Shown here: positions 1,128-38,810 of the stretch, piece after piece
How positions within the stretch are numbered: the first letter of the stretch is position 1
Layout: each line of letters starts with the position of its first letter
From: Eledone cirrhosa
Lineage: Eukaryota
Length of the DNA stretch: 64,000 nucleotides
Direction of reading: 5' to 3'
NCBI GenBank assembly: GCA_964016885.1
Contig: CAXHJY010000437.1
Coordinates: forward strand, 218,207-282,206
The notes under the pieces: model-generated
Database searches by the model: none
The model's input: only the letters and a program-made list of their open reading frames with translations
What the model was told of the DNA's origin: nothing
Program-made: the position numbers and the translations under genes

Positions 1128-3164
1128 CTAGTTTTCTAACAGCCCACCAGATATAGAACGGGGGATTCTGTCGAAGGCATTCTCCAGGTCAACAAAAGCT
1201 AAGTATAGTGGTTTACTTTTAGCTAGGTACTTCTCCTGTAGTTGTCGTACAATGAAAAGAGCGTCTGTGGTACTTTTGCCTGACACAAACCCGAACTGCA
1301 TTTCATCTAGATCAATTCTCTCTCTGATTAGTTGCGCTATTACTTTTTCCGTTACCTTCATGACCTGGTCGATTAATTTAATGCCTCTATAGTTACTCCT
1401 ATCTAGGGCGTCTCCTTTACCCTTGTAACAGTTAATGATGATGCTGCTACGCCAGTCCTTCGGAACAACCCCATTCTGTACGACTTGGTTAACTATCCGG
1501 GTGACCATGGTGTGTCTCACCGTACCAGATGCCTTCAGCATCTCGGCAACTATTTCCGAAGGCCCAGCCGCCTTACACGTCTCCATATCCTTGATTGCCT
1601 TACTTATTATACTACCCTCGGCTAACACTGCTGGTCCCTCTATTGGATCGATCTGGGGGAGACTGTCTTTCTCCCATTTGTTCTCCTCATTTAGAAGCCT
1701 TTCGTAGTGACACTTCCAAGCTACCTTCTTATCAGTGTCGGTGATGGCAAGTATGCCATCATCGTTAAGTACACACTTCTCCCCGACAATATCACGGTTT
1801 TCCTTGACACATTGCCTAGCAATCCTGAACACCTCACGTTTTTGGTCCTCCCGTTGTAGAACATGCTTGAACTTTCTTTCCTCTGCTTCCCTTCTTGCGA
1901 AGTACACTTGTCTCCTAGCTTCCCTCCTGGCCCCTTGATAGTCTTCTCTACTTCCCCCATCCCGCCATACTTTCCAAGCCTGCTTTTTGGCCTTGATTGA
2001 CCCCTCCACCTTACTGTTCCACCACCATGTTACTCTCCTCCTGCCTACAAGCCTGCTCCAGCCACAGACTTCGTCTGCCGCCTTCAGCAGGTTTGCTTTC
2101 AGGAATTCCCACTGCTCCTCTATATTGTACGACTCTAATTGCTCTTCCTTACTGTCGAAAGCATCAAGTAGTATGCTTTTAAATTTATTTCTGGCTGTGG
2201 GGTCCTTTAGCTTCCATATTTTTCTCCTGAGGACAGTCCTCTTCTGTTGTCTAATGCGTCTCGTCCTGACTATTAGGTCGCTGATTATCAGTCTATGTTG
2301 GGAGGTGCATTCTTCGTGGGGGAGGGATTTATAGTTTACAACAGACACTCTGTCACGTCTTCTGGTAAGGATATAATCTACCTGGCTTGTGTGTTCCCCC
2401 GATCTATAGGTGATCAGGTGATTGTCCCGTTTTTTGAAGTTAGTGTTACAGATAGTTAGGTTATTTGCGTCACAGAATTCCAGGATTCTGGAGCCTTCCT
2501 TATTTCTAGTACCAAACCCATAGCCTCCATGGATTTCGTCGTAGCCGTCACAATATTGTCCAACGTGACCATTTAGGTCGCCTGCAATAATTATATAGTC
2601 ACTGTCGGTTATTTGGGAGGTAGTGAGCATCAGTGTCTCATAGAATCTGTCTTTTATAGTGCCGGGCAGTCCGGATTGGGGTGCGTACGCAGATATTACT
2701 GTCACCGTAGTTCTATTGAGGACAAGTCTTATTTTAATTATTCTGTCGTTCACTCTATTTACGTCTATTATCTTATCTGCCCACTTTTCTGCTACCATGA
2801 TTTCTACTCCACCCAGCCCATTGTCATTGCCCACCCAGAAAAGCTTATAGCATCGTTTTTTACCCACAATGAATCTAGGAGACCCACCCCTCCACCTGGT
2901 CTCTTGAATACAACAAACATCGACCTCCTTACGTTCAAGCATTTCTACAACCTCGTTAGAGCGACCCTTTAAGGTGCCTACATTCATGGTATCAACTCTG
3001 AAGTTTTGGATTGCGTTTGGAGGGTGGGAGCGGTGGGGAGGGGGGGGGGTTATGTTAGCCATCCGCGGCCGAAACAAGGAGGAGTGCTCGCATTCTCGTC
3101 CAGATTTTTCTGGGCGTCCAGATTTTTCTCTCTTCAACTCTCCAGAATTCCGTAGTCCATCCAT
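1128..3164 (-). pseudogene. RTE ORF, N-terminal part: APE endonuclease + RT N-terminal half, ending at a frameshift near 1150
   Basis: 678-aa ORF; 1-bp deletion relative to copy 2 (accagat-atag vs accagataatgg) shifts RSIIWW out of frame. Confidence 0.9.
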
Positions 3165-3700
3165 CCGTCATATCGAAAGGCAACTAGGTAAGCGATAGTA
3201 TAGGCCTCTGGCTTATGATTGGTCCACGTAATAATAATTGTGGTGCGTGGGGACGGGTGTTGAGTTGTTAGCGAGAAGGTTAGGTTTAAGTAAGATCCTC
3301 GTATTTAACAAGCAATAACAAAAATACAAGATTTGTTTTGAAAAATACGACAAAAATACAGGAGGATTTGTTTTGGAAATGCGATAGAATAGCGAGTAGC
3401 GAGGCAAAGATTGGAATCGGGTAAGAGAAAATGCTATAGAATTGTCGGATGGGGTAGACTATGGAATTGAGTGGATTGTAGAAATGCAAGAAAAATGTGT
3501 ACATTACATTATACCGTGAAGGAAAGCAGCCATGAATTTGGCGAATGTGATTACTTGTGGGGTTTATCTTATATATATAGATAGAGAGAGAGAAGGGGGG
3601 GGGAGGTTTGGCCGCATGATGTAGAGTGGGGTGGCTGACCGCGAACTCTCATGATGTAGGGAAGGGGGAGGAGATATTAAGGAGCGGGAATTAAGATAGT

Positions 3701-5382
<1,682 letters not shown>

Positions 5383-27534: not shown

Positions 27535-28042
27535 ATAAACAGACATCTAGTAGGCACCTCTTAACCACTATACCCCTTCCATACACCTCCCATGGCCCAA
27601 CACCCACCCACCCACTTCTGACCACACCACCCTTACACTGTAAAACTATGTTGGTATCATAACAAAAAATCACCCAGCCTCCACTGTAAAGGGGTTGTGT
27701 GGGTGTCACAACAAAAAGCACCCAGCCCCACACTGTAAAGTGGTCATGTAGGTGTCATGACAAAAAGCACCCAGCACACACTGTAAAGTGGTCATGTAGG
27801 TGTCATGACAAAAAGCACCCAGCACACACTGTAAAGTGGTCATGTAGGTGTCATGACAAAAAGCACCCAGCACACACTGTAAATGTGGTTGGCTTTAGAA
27901 AGGGCATCCAGCCATAGAAACCTAGCCAGAAACAGTTCTATATGAGCAAGACATGGTCATCTAACCTGACTTGCCTCTAATGGGACAGCCCGTCTAACCT
28001 CTGCTAGCGTGGAAAAATGGTTTTTAAACGGTGATGATGACG
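27535..28042 (+). mobile_element. Solo RTE-A-type 3' UTR containing a 48-bp tandem repeat (three identical units 27729-27872 plus one diverged unit)
   Basis: Unit cacactgtaaagtggtcatgtaggtgtcatgacaaaaagcacccagca. Confidence 0.9.
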
Positions 28043-28419: not shown

Positions 28420-29705
28420 AAAAAGAACATGAAATCATAATTTAGCATTTCTCTACATTTGAAGCAGTCTGAATCCTTTTTCAAACAAAGTTATATGGAA
28501 GTCAGTTCTGCTAAACGTTTTAGCATTAATTTAATTTCTGTTGCATTTCTCAATAACATTTAAAAAGAGATAAAACTGGAAGGGGAGAGAAATGAAGAAA
28601 AATATCAAAATAGAAAAAATAAACATGATGAATTTTTACACCTTGATGTAGTTGGATTGAGACTAATGCAACACTTCCTATTGAACTATCAAGGTTTCGA
28701 AGGTATGTCCTGCTTAGCTGTTCCAGCTAGTAGAAATAGTAGTCAAATCACACTCCTAATAACACTCTACTATCCTGAAAAAGAAATAACTGCATTGGAT
28801 AATCTAGTTTTAAATAGATTGTCTGAATACTTAAAAAGGGTGAGATGGTCATAGCTGGAATGACTTTGATAATAATTTTGTTGTATCAGAGTTTACCTTG
28901 GACTAAATAACAACAATATAATTAAACCAGTTAGGGAGCCATTCTGTGGTCACTAAATCAGCTGGCAAGAACAGACAATTCTTCCACAAATTCCACCCTA
29001 AAAGACATGCTGAATAATCTAGTCCTAGATATATTAGGACAAAAAAGATGGTTTAGTCATAATTGGAACACATTTGAAGATAGGTCTACTTTATCAGGAC
29101 TGACCTAGGGTTGAACAAAAACAACAATATTCCTCTTGACTATCAGCTATAAACTTTCAATTTTAATTGTATATGTGGAATTAGATATGCTAGCTCAGCC
29201 CTTCATAGATTCTTTCCACTCACAAACATACGATACACCATTAAAAAAGAACAAGAATTTACAAGGAGTTTCATTATGAAATGCTGATGGCATATATAAT
29301 GAATATAAATGGCACCAACCATAGATCCAAACAGTGCCGAATTACATAAATAAGTAAATATGTAACTAAATATAGAAGTAAAAAATACAAAAACAAAAAT
29401 TCAGCTGCTTCTCCTCAAAGAAGTAAAATTTCTATCATAATCTATTTAGTTTCAATTGCAATGTTTTTTTTTTTAAATTGTATTCGTGAAATATATCTGT
29501 AGGCTACAAAATATCGACCCAGTGAATCTATTCAGAGTACTTGAAAATGAAATAGTTAATGTATGTATGTACATATGCATGTATACATACAGACACACAC
29601 ACGAGTGTGTATATATGTATGTACATATGCATGTATACGCACACACACACGAGTGTGTATATATGTATGTATGTAGATATGTTTTGTTTGTTTGTTTGTT
29701 TTTTT

Positions 29706-30003
29706 GTGCCTCTCCTTTGTTCTGTCCTACGCCATCTTGTTTGGTGTATGGCGTAGGACAGAACAAAGGAGAGGCACAAGGGGAGAACAAAGAAAATAGT
29801 CCCCAGTCATTGAAGAGGTCGCAGAGTGTGTGACGAAGGAGCTTTGACAATATATGAACAATCGTCTGGTTGTGGAACCAACCAACGAACCGGAAATTTG
29901 TAAATTCCTAAATTTATAGATTTGATTTGTGATAAATTGAAGTGAGAGTGGCTGGTACGTGTGTTTCTTGTTGGCAGCATGACCCTCCCAAAGCATAACA
30001 ATA
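29706..30003 (+). mobile_element. Solo Penelope pseudo-LTR with a 30-bp fold-back at its left end and a decayed hammerhead (29805-29849)
   Basis: Similar to 32729-32992; arms 29706-29735 and 29748-29777 are exact reverse complements. Confidence 0.85.
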
Positions 30004-30023
30004 TGTATATATATATATATATA

Positions 30024-31378
30024 TTGCTAAGGCTTTTAATTCTGTGCCACACAAAATACTTATGGCAAAACTCTCTGCAATGGGTGTGAGGGATGATCTT
30101 TTCGACTGGTTGAAATCCTTCATTCTCAGCCGAAAAGAAGTAGTCACGGTTCTAGGACAGCATTCTTCACCATATGAGATGTCATCTGGTGTACCACAGG
30201 GATCTGTTCTTGGTCCCCTTTTGTTTGTGGCATATATTAATGACATAGATGCCAACTTACAGAATGCCACGGTACTGAAATATGCAGATGACATCAAGCT
30301 GTACCTTGAAATCAAAAGGACTGATCCTGAAATCTACAACTCTTTCCTACAATCAGACCTGGACACAATGCAGCAATGGATCACAGACTGGCAACTGAAT
30401 CTGGCTGTGGGCAAGTGTACCACCATGTATTTTGGGAGGAAAAATCCAGCGTCCACATACTCCCTCCACAACACTGATATCAAGAAGTCCTCTTGTGAAC
30501 ATGACCTGGGCATTACTGTCAGCAGCGATTTGCGTTGGACAAAGCATGTCTCTAAGATTGTCAAGAAGGCCGAGGGTGTCTTGGCATCACTCAGCAAGAC
30601 CTTTGTTAGCCGCTCTCCAGCCATCTATTTAAAACTGTTTACAGCTATGGTACGACCACACTTGGAATTCACATCATCAGTCTGGAACCTCTATCTTGCT
30701 CAGAACATTGACCTCCTGGAAACTGTTCAGAGACGTGCAACCAAGCGCATATCCTCCATCAGACACCTACCATACTCTGAACGCCTTGCTTCCCTGGGCA
30801 TGGATTCATTGAAGCTCCGACGTCTGGCAATGGACTTGGTAAATACCCACAAAGTTATTAACCATCTCGCCAATTGCAGCCTTGAGCACCTTTTTGATCT
30901 CCATGTGTCTAACACACGTGGACATGCCTACAAAATCAGAAAACAGTACAGCTCCCATGACTTTTGTAGACATTTTTTCACGCTCAGAGTTGCTGAAGCA
31001 TGGAACAAACTGCCTGCGTCAGTTGTTAGCTGCCGAGACACTGCATCCTTTAAGACACTCATGCTTCCCGAAATACGCCAAAACTACACCTGATGTACCC
31101 CTTCCATACACATGCACACATGTGTGTATCATGACTCGTGCACTGTTCATTTTCCTGATGTTTGTGCATTGTCCTATGTACTGTACATGCACTTTTTGAT
31201 GAGTTCTGGTGCACCTGGGCACTGTACACAATATTTCATTATTATTATTATTATTATATCATGACTCATACACTGTTCATTTTCCTGACATTTGTACATT
31301 ATTCTATGTACTATACATGCACCTTTGATGAGTTGTAGTGCACCTGAGCACTGTACACAATAATTTCATTATTATTAT
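30024..31378 (+). mobile_element. CR1-like LINE, 5'-truncated, open RT frame (30044-31093), duplicated 3' UTR
   Basis: SGVPQGSVLGPLLF, KYADDIKL, DLGI, VRPHLE, VQRRATK; two (ATT)n tails. Confidence 0.92.
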
Positions 31379-31640
31379 ATTATATGTATGTATATATATA
31401 TTGTATATATATATGTATGTATATATATCGTTTCTGAATTTGTTTAGCAAGATTCTTTATCTGAAATCGTGTGTTGAAACCGATATTGTTATACTTTGGG
31501 AGGGTCATGTTGCCAATAAGAAACACACGCACCAGTTGCTTTCACTTCAATTTATTATATATTTATAAATTTACAAATTTATAAATTTATAAATTTCTGG
31601 TTGGTTGGTTGGTTCCACAACCAGATAGTTGTTTATATAT

Positions 31641-31685
31641 AGTCATAGTCCTTTCGTCACACACTCTGTGACCTCTTCAGTGACT
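31641..31685 (-). ncRNA. Minimal type I hammerhead ribozyme (left pLTR)
   Basis: Exact reverse complement of 32781-32825. Confidence 0.7.
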
Positions 31686-31749
31686 GGGGATTCCTTTCTT
31701 TGTCTCCGTGCCTCTCCTTTGTTCTGTCCTACGCCATTTTGTTTCTGAT

Positions 31750-32572
31750 TGCGGGTTTGGTGCGGGTGATGGGAGATGTGTCCCGCGTGTGCGGCCCCGA
31801 GGGGCTGGGGAGACACATGCGGCGCTTCATCCACCGTGTGCGGTTCTCTGGCTGCAGTCAGAGAGAAGGAGTCGGAGTGTGTGGGGGAGCCGGAGCCGGA
31901 TGGGAAGGGATGGTGGATAGTGACATAGGTGGGACCTGCCCCTTGTATGGGGGCAGGTTTTGGAATGGAGTGGAGAGAGCTAGGAACGGGGCTGGTGGGG
32001 TAGACTCATGGTGTGATAGCAATGGGTGCCAGGGTGTGGTGTTCGTCGATGCAGCCCCTGGGGGCGAACTGGCCTGCAAATTTGGGGGGGCGCTAGATAG
32101 ACATAGGCTCAGTATTGGGATGGTGGAAAGACCGGGTGCCTCCGTGGGAGCACTTATTGGCAAGACGTGCCCTTTCCGGGGGCCCTCATGTATAGATGGG
32201 GAGTGTGTAGCCTGTGGAATAAGCCCCCATATTGACTGTAAGGCTGGAAATGTGGTGTGTGGCGTGGGGTGTGCTGAGGGACAGTGTAGAAACAGGGATG
32301 TAGTGTACATAGGTGAGACAGCTCGTAGTATAGGGGAACGGATAAATGAACACTGGCGAGACCTTCAAGATAATAAAGAATCATCTGTACTCTACCAACA
32401 TGCTAAGATAGAACACAAGGGTAAATTAGAGAACATAGAAATAAAAATAGAATCTACACACAGAAAAGATGCAATGTTTAGACAAATTACAGAGGCAATG
32501 AACATAAAGGAATTACAACCAAAATTAAATAGAAAATATGAGTGGAACAGCAACATTACAACTTACAATTAA
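31750..32572 (+). pseudogene. PLE RT-thumb/linker + GIY-YIG endonuclease; the 5' about 540 nt is apparently A-to-G hypermutated
   Basis: Open frame; Gly-rich and Lys-poor until about 32290, then normal A-rich coding sequence. Confidence 0.85.
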
Positions 32573-32780
32573 GGACAAAATGAAAACACACACACACATA
32601 GAACAAACAATCAACCAATAACATGTAAATAAATAAATAAACAAATAGATAAATGAACATAAACACACACAGACACCCGGATGTGGCGCATGCGCAAACT
32701 GAGCACACAACACACACACAGAAACAAAATGGCGTAGGACAGAACAAAGGAGAGGCACGGAGACAAAGAAAGGAATCCCC

Positions 32781-32825
32781 AGTCACTGAAGAGGTCACAG
32801 AGTGTGTGACGAAAGGACTATGACT
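32781..32825 (+). ncRNA. Minimal type I hammerhead ribozyme (right pLTR)
   Basis: agtca-CTGAAGA-g-gtcaca/gagtg/tgtgac-GAAA-ggac-TA-tgact. Confidence 0.72.
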
Positions 32826-33107
32826 ATATATATAAACAACTATCTGGTTGTGGAACCAACCAACCAACCAGAAATTTATAAGTTTGTAAATTTATAAATT
32901 TGTAAATTTATAAATATATAATAAATTGAAGTGAAAGCAACTGGTGCGTGTGTTTCTTATTGGCAACATGACCCTCCCAAAGGATAACAATATGTATATA
33001 TATATATATGTATATATATGTATATGTATGTATATATATATATGTATATGTATATATATGTATATGTATATATATGTATATGTATGTATATATATGTATG
33101 TGTATAT

Positions 33108-33302: not shown

Positions 33303-33630
33303 TGGAGGCACATGGCTTAGTGGTTAGAGCATTGGCCTTGCAATCGAAAGGTTGTGAGTTCAATTCTCAGACCGGGCGATGTGTTGTTTCCTTGGGCAAG
33401 GCACTTTATTTCACATTGCTCCAGTTTACTCAGCTGTAGAAATGACTGGGGTCCCTATCATTCCACTGCAAAGTGGTCGTGGAGGTGCCACGGCAAAAAA
33501 GTACCCAGCACTCACTGTAAATGAAGTTTGTGTTAGGAAGGGTATCCAGCTGTAGAAATCAAGCCAGAATCAGTTCCCGTCCCACCCTTGCAAGCAGGGA
33601 AAAGCGGACGTAAAATGAAATGATGATGAT
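33303..33630 (+). mobile_element. tRNA-derived SINE with RTE-type 3' half
   Basis: A box TGGCTTAGTGG, B box GAGTTCAATTC, central tccttgggcaaggcactt, ttaggaagggtatccagc, (GAT)n tail. Confidence 0.88.
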
Positions 33631-35499: not shown

Positions 35500-38400
35500 C
35501 TAAGGCGGGTAAAATTCCCGAGATCCATGGACGAGTTCTCTCCAGCGGTCTCTGTCCCTCATTATCGCTGCCATATCCTGCATCTCCAACAGACCAGTGT
35601 CTGTCATTAGGGCATCAACATATGTTAACCTTGGTCTTCCTCTTCTAGTGTGTCCATGTAGGGGCTCCCAAAGGAGCACTGAGTGCAATGTCAACTCTGG
35701 ATGTCGGTGAGCATGTCCAGCCAACCTCAGTCTCCTCTGTGTCACTTTTGAGCTGACTTTTGGAATGCTCCCATACAGCTCTGAGTTTTTCATCCTCAGT
35801 GTATACTGATTAATGTTCAGAGCCATCCTCAGCATTCTCGTGTAGCACCCATCCACCATCTGAGTGAGTCTCTTGGTCAGTGTCCAAGTCTCAGACCCAT
35901 ACAGCAGCACAGACTCCACTACAGCAATGAAGAGGCGGATTTTCAGGTCTCTACGAAGGTCCGACTTCCACACCGATCTCAAGCTGTGACACGCCGCCCA
36001 GGCCTTGCTCTTCCTCTCAACCACATCATCTTCCGTATTCCCAATCTTTGCTCCCAAATACAGGAAGTCCTCAACCAATTCCAGCGGCTTCCCGCCTACA
36101 TTAGTGATCCCCTCTGGCTTCTCAACATTCTCTACCAGATATTTTGTTTTAGTCTCATTCATTCTCAGCCCCACACTCATCGACACAGTCTCAACCTCCC
36201 GCATCAAATCCTCTGCCTCCTTCACTGTATTTGTCACCAAAACTATGTCGTCGGCAAATTCAGCATCCGATACCTTTTTCGCCCCAACTCTCCTGCTCTG
36301 AGCCGGTGCTACAGTAAAGCCAGTGTCCTGGTGTTTCTCCAGTGCAAGGCGCATACAATAGTCCACTACGATGATAAAAAGGTAGGGAGCCAATGTATCT
36401 CCCTGGAGCACTCCAGCCAGTATCTCAAAGAACTCTGTCATCCCATCAGGTGTAATGACTTGGGCTTTGGTGTTGGTGTAGAGCAGTGATATCAGGTTCA
36501 CTATCCTCTTGGGGATTCCATAAGCCTGTAAGATCTTCATCAGGCAGTAACGGTCCACAGAATCAAAGGCCTTCCTAAAGTCAATGAAAACCATGACCGC
36601 AGGAAGGCACTTTGCTCTAGCTCCCTCTAATATCCTCCTCAGCATCAGGATGTGACTGGTGGTTGATCTACCCTCTCTGAAGCCGTTCTGGTTGTCCCTG
36701 AGCTTCTTCTCCATCTCAGGCTGGATCCTGTTAAGAATCATCCTGTTGAGGGTCTTTGCCACAAGTGACGTCAGTGAGATCCCCCCGGTAGTTATTGGTG
36801 TTAGAGAGATCTCCCTTCTTTGGCACTGGGACGATGTTACTGATCCGCCACTGATTCGGGGCAACTCCTTTCTCCAGTGCCCCGTTACAGAACCCCAGGA
36901 TGATATCATCAAAATCACACCTCTTCATCACCTCTGATGCCACTCCATCTTCTCCATGAGCCTTGCCCTCCTTGATCTTCTTCTTGGCTCTCTGAAGCTC
37001 CTCTCTGGTGAAGGGCTCTGTCTCAACATCCAGTTCCTCAAACAGCCGCCTGATCTCCCCAGTGCTCTGGGCTGTGGAGGGTAGCTCTCCTAGTAGGGTC
37101 CTAAAATGGTCTAGCCATTTCCTCTTCCTATCCTCGGGCCCCGTTCCCTGGATCTGACTCGAACACCTTTTCTTCCTCCCTGTGATCTCGTTGATGATCA
37201 TCCAGCTCTCCTTACATCCAGATCTGTCAACCGCTCTCTCCACACTTCTGATCTTCTCTATCAGTGCCTCCTCTCTGACCTCAGTGTAAGCGGTACAGAG
37301 CTCTTCCCTCATCACCTCCACAGTCTCCATCCTCTCCTCCGTAGGATCAGCATAGAATTGGTCCCTGGCAGCTTTCAGGTGTTCTCTGGCTGCACACACT
37401 TTTGGGTTTGCAGAGCTGACGTGCTTCCCTTTGTTCTTTTTCCTCGGCACCAGGGTTTCACTTGCTTCCGCCACTGCATTGGTGAAGTGCCCGTACCTTC
37501 TCGTCACACTCTCCTCAGTCCATCCAATCTCTCTCTCCTCTGACTCTCCACACAGAGCACTAAACCTGTTTCTCACTTCCACTGTGAACCTCTCCTGTAG
37601 CTTATCATCTTCCTTGAAAGCTCCCCAGTCATAGATTGTTCTCCGGGGCTGAGCCTTGCTCTTTCTTAAGCTCACGCGGACCTCACTCATAACAAGCCGG
37701 TGGTCACTACCCAGTGTACTGAAATAGCTGTATGGTTCCGTGTTCAGAACACTATTCCGCCACTTTTTCCTCACCAGAATGAAATCAATCTGGGACTTGG
37801 ACAGGTGCATATCTGAGATGTAGGTCCACATCTTCCCCAGATTCTTCCTAAACCCTAGGTTGGTCGCCATCAAGTTCGCCTCCAGCAGGGTGTCTCTCAG
37901 TAGTCTTCCATTTCGGTTGGTGTTGTTATGGAAGTACCAGCAAGGATCTTCACTGCCCTCCTTACTCAGATGTGCATTGAAGTTCCCCAAAACAAGCAGG
38001 ATATTGTGTGCCTGAGTGGTGTTGACAGCTCTACACACCTCCTCATGGAACTCCTCGGCATTAACATCATCGTCCCTCTCGGTTGGACTATAGGCTGAGA
38101 TGACTGTCAGTCTTGGGTTTCCATTGAAGGTCACCCTCAACACTCGCGGGGAGATAGGCATTATTTCCCTCACCAACAGATTGGTTTTTGCACTGAACAC
38201 AAAACCCACTCCTCCCACTGCAGCATTTGTTGTGTTCTTCACTGCCGATGTAGTGATGAGCTGGCTCTTCCTCCCGATCATCACACTCCTCACGGGCTCA
38301 TCGTGTAGAATCCTGTGTTCTTGGATCGCAAGTATCTGTATACCACTCTCCTCGAACAGATGTCCCAACTCCTCTCTCTTCTCCAGCGTTCGAATAGTCC

Positions 38401-38810
38401 TCAAATTCAAAGTGCCCATTTTGATGGCTCTTCTGCAGGACAAAACTGCATTCTTTATATTTGTCTCAGAGACAGCTCATCCATCATCCACTGGCCCTCT
38501 CTGTGGCTCTAAGCCAGCAGAGTCATAACGACCAGGCTGCTCCTTGACAGCGTAATTAGGGGCTCTAACCCTAGTGCTGTTAGATCGACTCTCCATATTT
38601 CTTTTCAATGGCTGACAATACCTTACTGGCGCCACTCGAATAAGGTAGTTATTTAACCCATAAATGGAGCCCTAACAGGTACTACCACCCCGGGCCAGGG
38701 CAGACCTGGGAGTCATGACAACTAAGGGGTAACTCCACATTCCCCACATCTCCTGAACTCCCGAACTGGAGCCTTGCCACTGGATGTAGTTTAATGTCAT
38801 ACCCAGGACA
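35500..38810 (-). mobile_element. Full-length RTE LINE family B: 5' UTR, APE and RT; single frameshift near 36785
   Basis: ORFs 36731-38443 (AIQEHR, SAYSPT, QIDFIL, GSDHR) and 35500-36918 (QNGFR, FIDFRKAFDSV, LQGDTLAP, FADDI, YGSETW). Confidence 0.94.

Follow-up and report, generated by a model that had tools for sequence, protein, structure and literature searches.

Sense-strand A-to-G tracts in a Penelope-like element family suggest that ADAR-edited RNA entered the germline DNA of an octopod

Sixteen insertions of one Penelope-like element (PLE) family carry tracts in which adenines of the element's sense strand are replaced by guanines. The tracts are strong in 14 insertions and weak in two (loci L094 and L104), and altogether 1517 of the 4132 tract adenines read as G. 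These tracts very probably derive from element RNA that was hyper-edited by ADAR and then reverse transcribed into the germline. Such edit-writing happened independently at least 14 to 16 times in the family. In a broader reading, to which we assign a probability of about 0.65, ADAR edits would routinely enter the octopod germline through a PLE whose head-to-head mode of insertion makes double-stranded RNA (dsRNA), and the edits would serve as single-molecule barcodes of two reverse transcription reactions from one sense RNA, one at each end of the break. ADAR edits dsRNA in dense clusters and disfavors adenines that follow a G, reverse transcriptase (RT) reads inosine as G, and coleoid cephalopods are known for heavy RNA editing. 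The host is an octopod, its ADAR2 deaminase exon (locus on contig C6) being 95% identical to the Octopus vulgaris protein. A second A_deamin locus (C1:146.4 Mb) is closest to ADAR1, and two more A_deamin loci were seen, at G000 C25:17350492-17356918 and C1:320727439-320727711.

One edited copy lies in the window, i.e., the whole stretch of 64,000 nucleotides that was analyzed. Its direct arm (31745..32993, plus strand) is a 5'-truncated PLE corresponding to family positions 2807-4052 (coordinates of locus L108:4404-8660); a 3' tail is absent, and the arm runs out into a (TA)n microsatellite. Downstream of the edited tract, the arm comprises the unedited rest of the GIY-YIG endonuclease ORF (32301..32572, plus strand), 99% identical to the paralogs, and an unedited 3' pseudo-LTR (32720..32993, plus strand). 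An inverted head-to-head arm (31483..31747, minus strand) is a copy of the pseudo-LTR, unedited like the matching part of the direct arm, which it overlaps by about 3 nt at the junction. Only this inverted arm carries a 55-nt 'tail' (31428..31482, minus strand), followed by (TA)n. At about 32785-32830, the 3' pseudo-LTR contains CUGA-N-GA, a stem II and GAAA, which resemble a hammerhead core. This core-like motif and its stems fold, with a z-score of 0.13; Rfam gave no hammerhead match, and its only matches to the element were sub-threshold hairpins.

Using the unedited part as a query in its own genome, we scored the best 40 of 1153 candidates, and all but the window's own were at 99% identity. 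Other copies of the family are longer, up to about 4.1 kb, and are found both in tandem and head to head. A direct Pfam scan of the element ORF returned no family; the 1091-aa frame of L110 has its nearest Atlas clusters at 0.95-0.97, several of them with RVT_1, GIY-YIG and HTH_animal, and paralog L022 has a CX4CxxC linker upstream of the GIY-YIG motif. The family thus shows the traits of EN+ PLEs, with one ORF for an RT plus a GIY-YIG domain at the C terminus, and the PLE layout of pseudo-LTRs, an inverted 5' arm, a tail at one end, tandem copies and an AT-rich target. Upstream inverted 5' pieces are present in L066/L181 (C28) and L070, e.g., 1801-2007 placed before 2805, and resemble L1 twin-priming inversions. 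Near-identical 5' truncations are shared by L177 and L178 (2963, 2962) and by the window copy, L180 and L181 (2807, 2807, 2805), possibly reflecting preferred RT stop sites, or chance. A subfamily comprising L035, L038, L039, L044, L046, L048, L053 and L054 has some 40-100 nt duplicated in tandem where the ORF ends and the 3' UTR begins (family positions ~3633-3736). On C27, the head-to-head insertions L095 and L098 lie 170 kb from each other and are almost the same, which probably reflects a segmental duplication or a duplicate in the assembly. In the ORF of L110 (4255-7527), an Asn-rich N-terminal insert upstream of the RT is like the N-rich inserts of rotifer Penelope elements (PMC3846280). 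A CX2-5CxxC linker before GIY-YIG marks the Neptune and Nematis clades (PMC8557442), and by its Cys-rich linker the family would belong to the EN+ PLEs of Neptune/Nematis type. Described members of these clades share with it the single ORF with RT, CX4CxxC and GIY-YIG, the pseudo-LTRs, the inverted 5'-truncated arm, the one-end tail and (TA)n (PMC8557442, PMC3846280, PMC11167929).

The hyper-edited tract of the window copy (31755..32300, plus strand) starts 10 bases inside the copy's 5' end. It spans the stretch between the RT core and the endonuclease, the linker rich in Cys and the first part of the GIY-YIG domain. When the majority base of each column was taken from the arms at 29 paralog loci, with adenines counted over 31746-32300, 121 of 223 family adenines were G in the window copy, and only three other substitutions were found in the tract (a T>A, a C>G and a T>C). 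Comparisons with individual full-length paralogs over 31750-32300 gave 120-123 A>G and 3-13 other changes each, and at 117 of the 125 A>G sites G was absent from all paralogs. An equally G-rich family consensus was rejected, the paralogs being A-rich across the tract. A previous sequence-only reading of the window had described an abrupt compositional flip, and its base counts for two 60-base blocks are exact (14 A and 33 G at 31861-31920; 32 A and 10 G at 32401-32460). It placed the end of the edited segment at 32290; the edge is indeed sharp, with none of the 80 fixed adenines of the next 199 bases changed, but it lies 10 bases further, at 32300.

The same reading noted that 11 of the 14 adenines surviving in the first block follow a G. 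This count is correct, but as evidence for 5' G avoidance it is inflated because the G before a surviving A often was an edited A. Neighbor context was thus read from the unedited family, not from the edited copy. Editing then reached 41/59 adenines (0.69) after T, 53/83 (0.64) after A, 14/35 (0.40) after C and 13/46 (0.28) after G, and the avoidance of 5' G that had been predicted was found (Fisher p=1e-4, 5' G versus the rest). Adenines before a 3' G were changed at 34/49 sites (0.69) versus 87/174 (0.50) for the others (p=0.02). At the protein level, 79 of the 186 tract codons differ from a real paralog, with Lys going from 16 to 3 and Gly from 6 to 38. One frame is open across 31649-32572, as had been pointed out; the lack of stops is however automatic, because sense-strand A>G cannot make a stop from a sense codon. 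Three motifs proposed to lie one such change away from their usual form, SGY, NVVY and PGTS, were borne out, but FVDATP was not, the real paralog having FIDTTP, three edits from FVDAAP.

The window copy is young, in agreement with the sequence-only reading, as it departs from the majority base of the family at only 5 of 670 non-A sites. Ordinary decay was rejected as the cause of the tract on this 0.75% divergence. Locus-wide hypermutation was rejected as well: a young, unrelated LINE fragment between two copies of the pseudo-LTR family (30025..31250, plus strand) is not hyper-edited and showed 7 A>G, 7 C>T, 3 G>A and 4 other changes over 1226 columns, which makes it a control against locus-wide mutagenesis. 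The proposal that a hyper-edited RNA was retrotransposed is supported by the family baseline, the nearly pure sense-strand A>G spectrum, the 5' G avoidance and the existence of more edited copies.

On the other side of the LINE fragment, a second, older pseudo-LTR copy of the PLE family (29748..30004, plus strand) has G at 15 of 83 adenines and 5 other changes, with none of its 15 adenines after a 5' G changed; the equivalent paralog arms have 0-3 A>G, and this copy is probably edited too. If edited copies make up only about 1% of the family, its position 1.7 kb upstream of the window copy calls for an explanation. At 29704-29779, a short inverted piece at its 5' end forms a perfect hairpin some 30 bp long, and Rfam microRNA matches there were sub-threshold. 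Elsewhere in the window, an RTE-like LINE with endonuclease and RT frames was recognized by eye (35500-38476, minus strand), and 48-bp tandem repeats lie inside a dispersed SINE-like repeat (27665-27938 and 33462-33576).

The further edited copies expected genome-wide were found. With the edited tract as a query, six more copies ranked above the unedited 77% baseline, and 6/6 had sense-strand A>G clusters. Scoring of 234 distinct arms (267 kb), restricted to columns with at least 6 arms and 80-90% agreement and with a background built from arms no more than 5% diverged, gave the total of 16 edited insertions; the small number of remaining clusters belonged to older copies with a mixed spectrum, and none of the 234 arms held a cluster dominated by T>C. 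This sample was enriched for edited copies by design, and frequency was taken only from motif scans. An A/G-blind 30-base motif, with zero mismatches permitted, matched about 2970 family arms, of which 1/100 among the first listed was hyper-edited. An edited motif requiring at least 3 of 5 hot A>G changes, with two mismatches permitted, matched 14 arms, 7 of them insertions outside the motif design. About 0.5-1% of family arms are edited. The mirror T>C motif, which was placed on unfitted sites and is less sensitive than the fitted A>G motif, matched 0 of the ~2970 arms (versus 14 for A>G, p=1.2e-4). With a LINE motif that was likewise unfitted and less sensitive, 0 of 1110 matches in a young LINE family were edited; the difference from the PLE has p=0.016 for 14/2970 and p=0.12 for 8/2970, when the six design arms are left out, which is only suggestive of a specificity of editing for the PLE over the LINE.

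Edit patterns were compared between insertions over 79 pairs, giving a median Jaccard index of 0.37 and a maximum of 0.59. The insertions thus share hot sites but not patterns and are therefore independent events, and for the 16 insertions at hand, amplification or duplication of one edited ancestor was rejected. L172 on C28 and L173 on C1, which belong to an older subfamily, have tracts (family positions ~3100-3444) with different patterns but a common end at position 3444, which hints at a common source whose duplex ended at a fixed point.

The spectrum of the changes was established on the first nine insertions. G replaced 864 of 2374 tract adenines, compared with 264 of 69328 in 137 unedited arms, and the other 11 substitution types were each at background, with no excess of A>T or A>C of the kind expected from inosine misreading. 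APOBEC-type G>A changes did not stand out (6/1001 in the tracts versus a 0.9% background). Pooled editing rates by 5' neighbor were 0.55 for T, 0.44 for A, 0.23 for C and 0.14 for G, in line with the ADAR rank order U>A>C>G. By 3' neighbor, they were 0.53 for G, 0.35 for C, 0.33 for A and 0.30 for T; TAG and AAG were the best triplets and GAC, GAT and GAA the worst. The spectrum and context of the tracts thus fit ADAR preferences. ADARs have been described to prefer 5' U and A, the 5' base being the most influential, and ADAR2 to prefer a 3' G (PMC3113232), and 5' G is depleted at ADAR sites (PMC2873906).

As judged from the assembly, the edits appear to be present in the DNA and to be old enough to have aged. 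CpG dinucleotides created by editing show C>T at 9/181 sites, versus 8/629 at unedited CpA (CMH p=0.005, stratified by copy). At non-A sites, the edited copies diverge by 0.4%-10.6% from the majority of the young family, and subfamily differences account for part of this. In inverted twin arms, a given element position reads A>G on one strand but T>C on the opposite one, which base-calling bias would not produce. Two runs, X1 and X2, contained 47/47 of the sampled tract words and a third, X3, a fraction of 0.47, and no RNA run was among the listed runs with these words; as the runs are from one sample, maybe the assembly source, we do not count them as support.

The arms of head-to-head insertions indicate when the edits were made. 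Eight edited insertions have a scorable head-to-head second arm, and the overlap is edited in four of them. Shared and discordant edits in these four numbered 94/7, 33/0, 49/4 and 13/3, for a total of 189 of 203 sites shared, and the Jaccard index was 0.81-1.0 between twin arms versus at most 0.59 between insertions. At L093, the tract ends at the same position in both arms. The remaining four edited pairs, of which the window copy is one, overlap only past the tract, where the two arms are almost free of edits, with only 2-3 shared A>G. As both arms share edits, editing preceded DNA synthesis; the sense-only changes and the sharing between arms are indirect evidence that the edit was made on the RNA.

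Of the 33 scorable head-to-head pairs (8 of 41 tail comparisons were unscorable), 32 have a tail on one arm and not on the other; the tailed arm is the long one in 17 pairs and the short one in 15. In L093 and L171, the long arm contains the whole of the short arm. In L179, by contrast, it is the short arm that bears the tail and neither arm contains the other, and the two share 49 edits. Pairs with the tail on the short arm are non-nested, and therefore one arm cannot be a fold-back copy of the other. It is likely that one sense RNA, copied twice, builds both arms. In vitro, a PLE protein cuts and extends both strands, two RT start sites define the tail, and a dimer is predicted (PMC11167929).

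We propose the following sequence of events. The sense RNA of the element would become partly double-stranded, and ADAR would deaminate about half of the adenines of the paired stretch to inosine, as the spectrum and context suggest. The element's own RT, primed at a cut (TA)n site, would then read inosine as G and write the edits into the genome. Two target-primed reactions, one per broken DNA end, would copy the same sense RNA from two start sites. The duplex partner would most likely come from the family's own head-to-head inverted copies, the transcripts of which would supply hairpins or antisense RNA. Such pairs are frequent: we found 64 among the 234 arms, and 30 of the 100 first listed arms were in such pairs by hand count. 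No duplex partner for the tract was found within the 64-kb window, and no internal inverted repeat matches the tract, the only one in the element being 38 nt long. Twelve of the 16 insertions have a tract that starts 31 nt or less from the copy's 5' end. Their 3' ends vary from family position 2410 to 3980, and the last ~70 bases are always spared. A simple read-through hairpin should pair the pseudo-LTR too, and the spared 3' end and varied tract ends speak against it. For the RNA to be used, the region where the RT binds and starts would need to stay unpaired.

Several other explanations were weighed against this model. The twin arms might match because one was copied from the other, by fold-back or gene conversion, or because both came from an edited genomic parent, the editing itself being real. 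Self-priming on an antisense template has been proposed for PLEs in a paper that left the question open (PMC3846280), the nested short arms of L093 and L171 would suit such fold-back, and an edited parent could be missing from the assembly. Nevertheless, fold-back requires nesting, and in 15 of the 33 scorable pairs, including L179 and the window copy, the tail is on the short arm and absent from the long one. Private differences between the arms of unedited pairs (264 discordant out of 16598 sites) also imply that arms were not recently homogenized. Furthermore, no two insertions have the same edit pattern, and no parent copy already carrying the same edits was found among the scored insertions, so that we regard this explanation as unlikely. 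Much less probable still is the action of another adenine deaminase, either an ADAT/TadA-like enzyme on single strands or ADAR on the DNA of an RNA:DNA hybrid, during or after integration. More than one A_deamin locus exists in the genome, and ADARs edit DNA in hybrids in model substrates (PMC12925331). However, edits made once two cDNAs existed would differ between arms, and the observed ones are shared; moreover, first-strand cDNA is antisense, and its editing would give T>C, which was not found. The neighboring LINE is also unchanged. An error-prone RT, with adenine misincorporation like that of diversity-generating retroelements (DGRs) or under dNTP imbalance, would account for changes confined to the template adenines of retrotransposed copies. 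DGR mutagenesis is A>N, whereas the spectrum here is A>G only, with A>T and A>C at background. RT errors would also be independent in each arm, contrary to the 189 of 203 shared sites and the common tract end of the L093 arms, and we find this explanation hardly credible. The same is true of an assembly or sequencing artifact arising from edited RNA reads or systematic base-calling errors. Clustered-mismatch artifacts are documented, as G-to-A in Sanger traces (PMC2873906), and the window is on a high-numbered contig (C464). The other 15 insertions are nevertheless on large contigs, each with its own flanks and its own pattern, the inverted twins show A>G and T>C at the same element positions, and the edit-created CpGs have decayed.

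A different question, compatible with ADAR editing of the RNA, is whether hyper-editing is a selected anti-retroelement defence of which the copies are the disabled products. The sequence-only reading had raised this possibility, for which no direct support was found, and we consider it rather improbable. Editing changed 79/186 codons in the window copy, and 5' truncation is somewhat stronger in edited arms than in a sample taken in order of position (14 versus 30 arms, one-sided p=0.011), with the tract starting within 31 nt of the 5' end in 12/16 insertions. Against this, only ~0.5-1% of arms are marked, and their RNAs were edited yet integrated; 5' truncation affects most copies in the absence of editing, and the window copy has it in any case. 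In vitro, RT products were not shortened by inosines (PMC10877575), and human ADAR1 restricts L1 without its catalytic activity, no edits having been found in L1 RNA (PMC5224506). RNAs destroyed after editing leave no fossil, and the effect is therefore not measurable from the genome alone. We thus treat the tracts as a by-product of editing that turned into inherited mutation.

Partial likenesses to this system have been described. In avian retroviruses (Rous-associated virus as well as avian leukosis virus, reported in 1994 and 1995), nearly 50% of A changed to G in a stretch by ADAR-type hypermutation, in one case in an inverted-repeat region (PMC12925331); those are infectious retroviruses, whereas here an endogenous PLE family has many independent copies of different ages in an invertebrate assembly. 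APOBEC-edited LTR elements and endogenous retroviruses similarly show clusters of one type, biased by strand and context, when a copy is compared with its family (PMC4866542, PMC2873906). APOBEC however acts on cDNA and yields G>A, in contrast with the A>G in ADAR context that arose here before cDNA synthesis. The dsRNA of Alu-type inverted repeats is hyper-edited with dense A>G, 5' G depletion and 3' G preference (PMC2873906, PMC3113232, PMC4365171), but those are mismatches between RNA and DNA, and ours are between genomic copies. In the accessible text of three PLE papers, ADAR-marked copies are not mentioned (PMC8557442, PMC3846280, PMC11167929), nor is such a case in that of a review of RNA editing and retrotransposons (PMC5974252). 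Among titles and abstract openings of the open literature, we found none that describes endogenous retroelement copies edited by ADAR in genomic DNA.

If our interpretation is correct, the family represents a sequence-level, family-wide case of A-to-I edits becoming inherited DNA changes, and an ADAR counterpart of APOBEC-edited retroelements. Copies with A>G tracts may be common and overlooked, because a published screen sought G>A and filtered it against A>G; as far as its accessible text goes, it considered LTR elements only and found 19 invertebrate genomes at noise level (PMC4866542). The edits would also offer a natural test of the PLE template strand and of the origin of inverted arms. 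The literature on PLEs had left the template strand open (PMC3846280), and for these copies the edits would identify it as sense RNA and trace the two arms to a single molecule. ADAR would also have been active on retroelement RNA in cells that feed the next generation, and the fossils would record, with dates, how active ADAR was and which sites it preferred in germ cells or early embryos.
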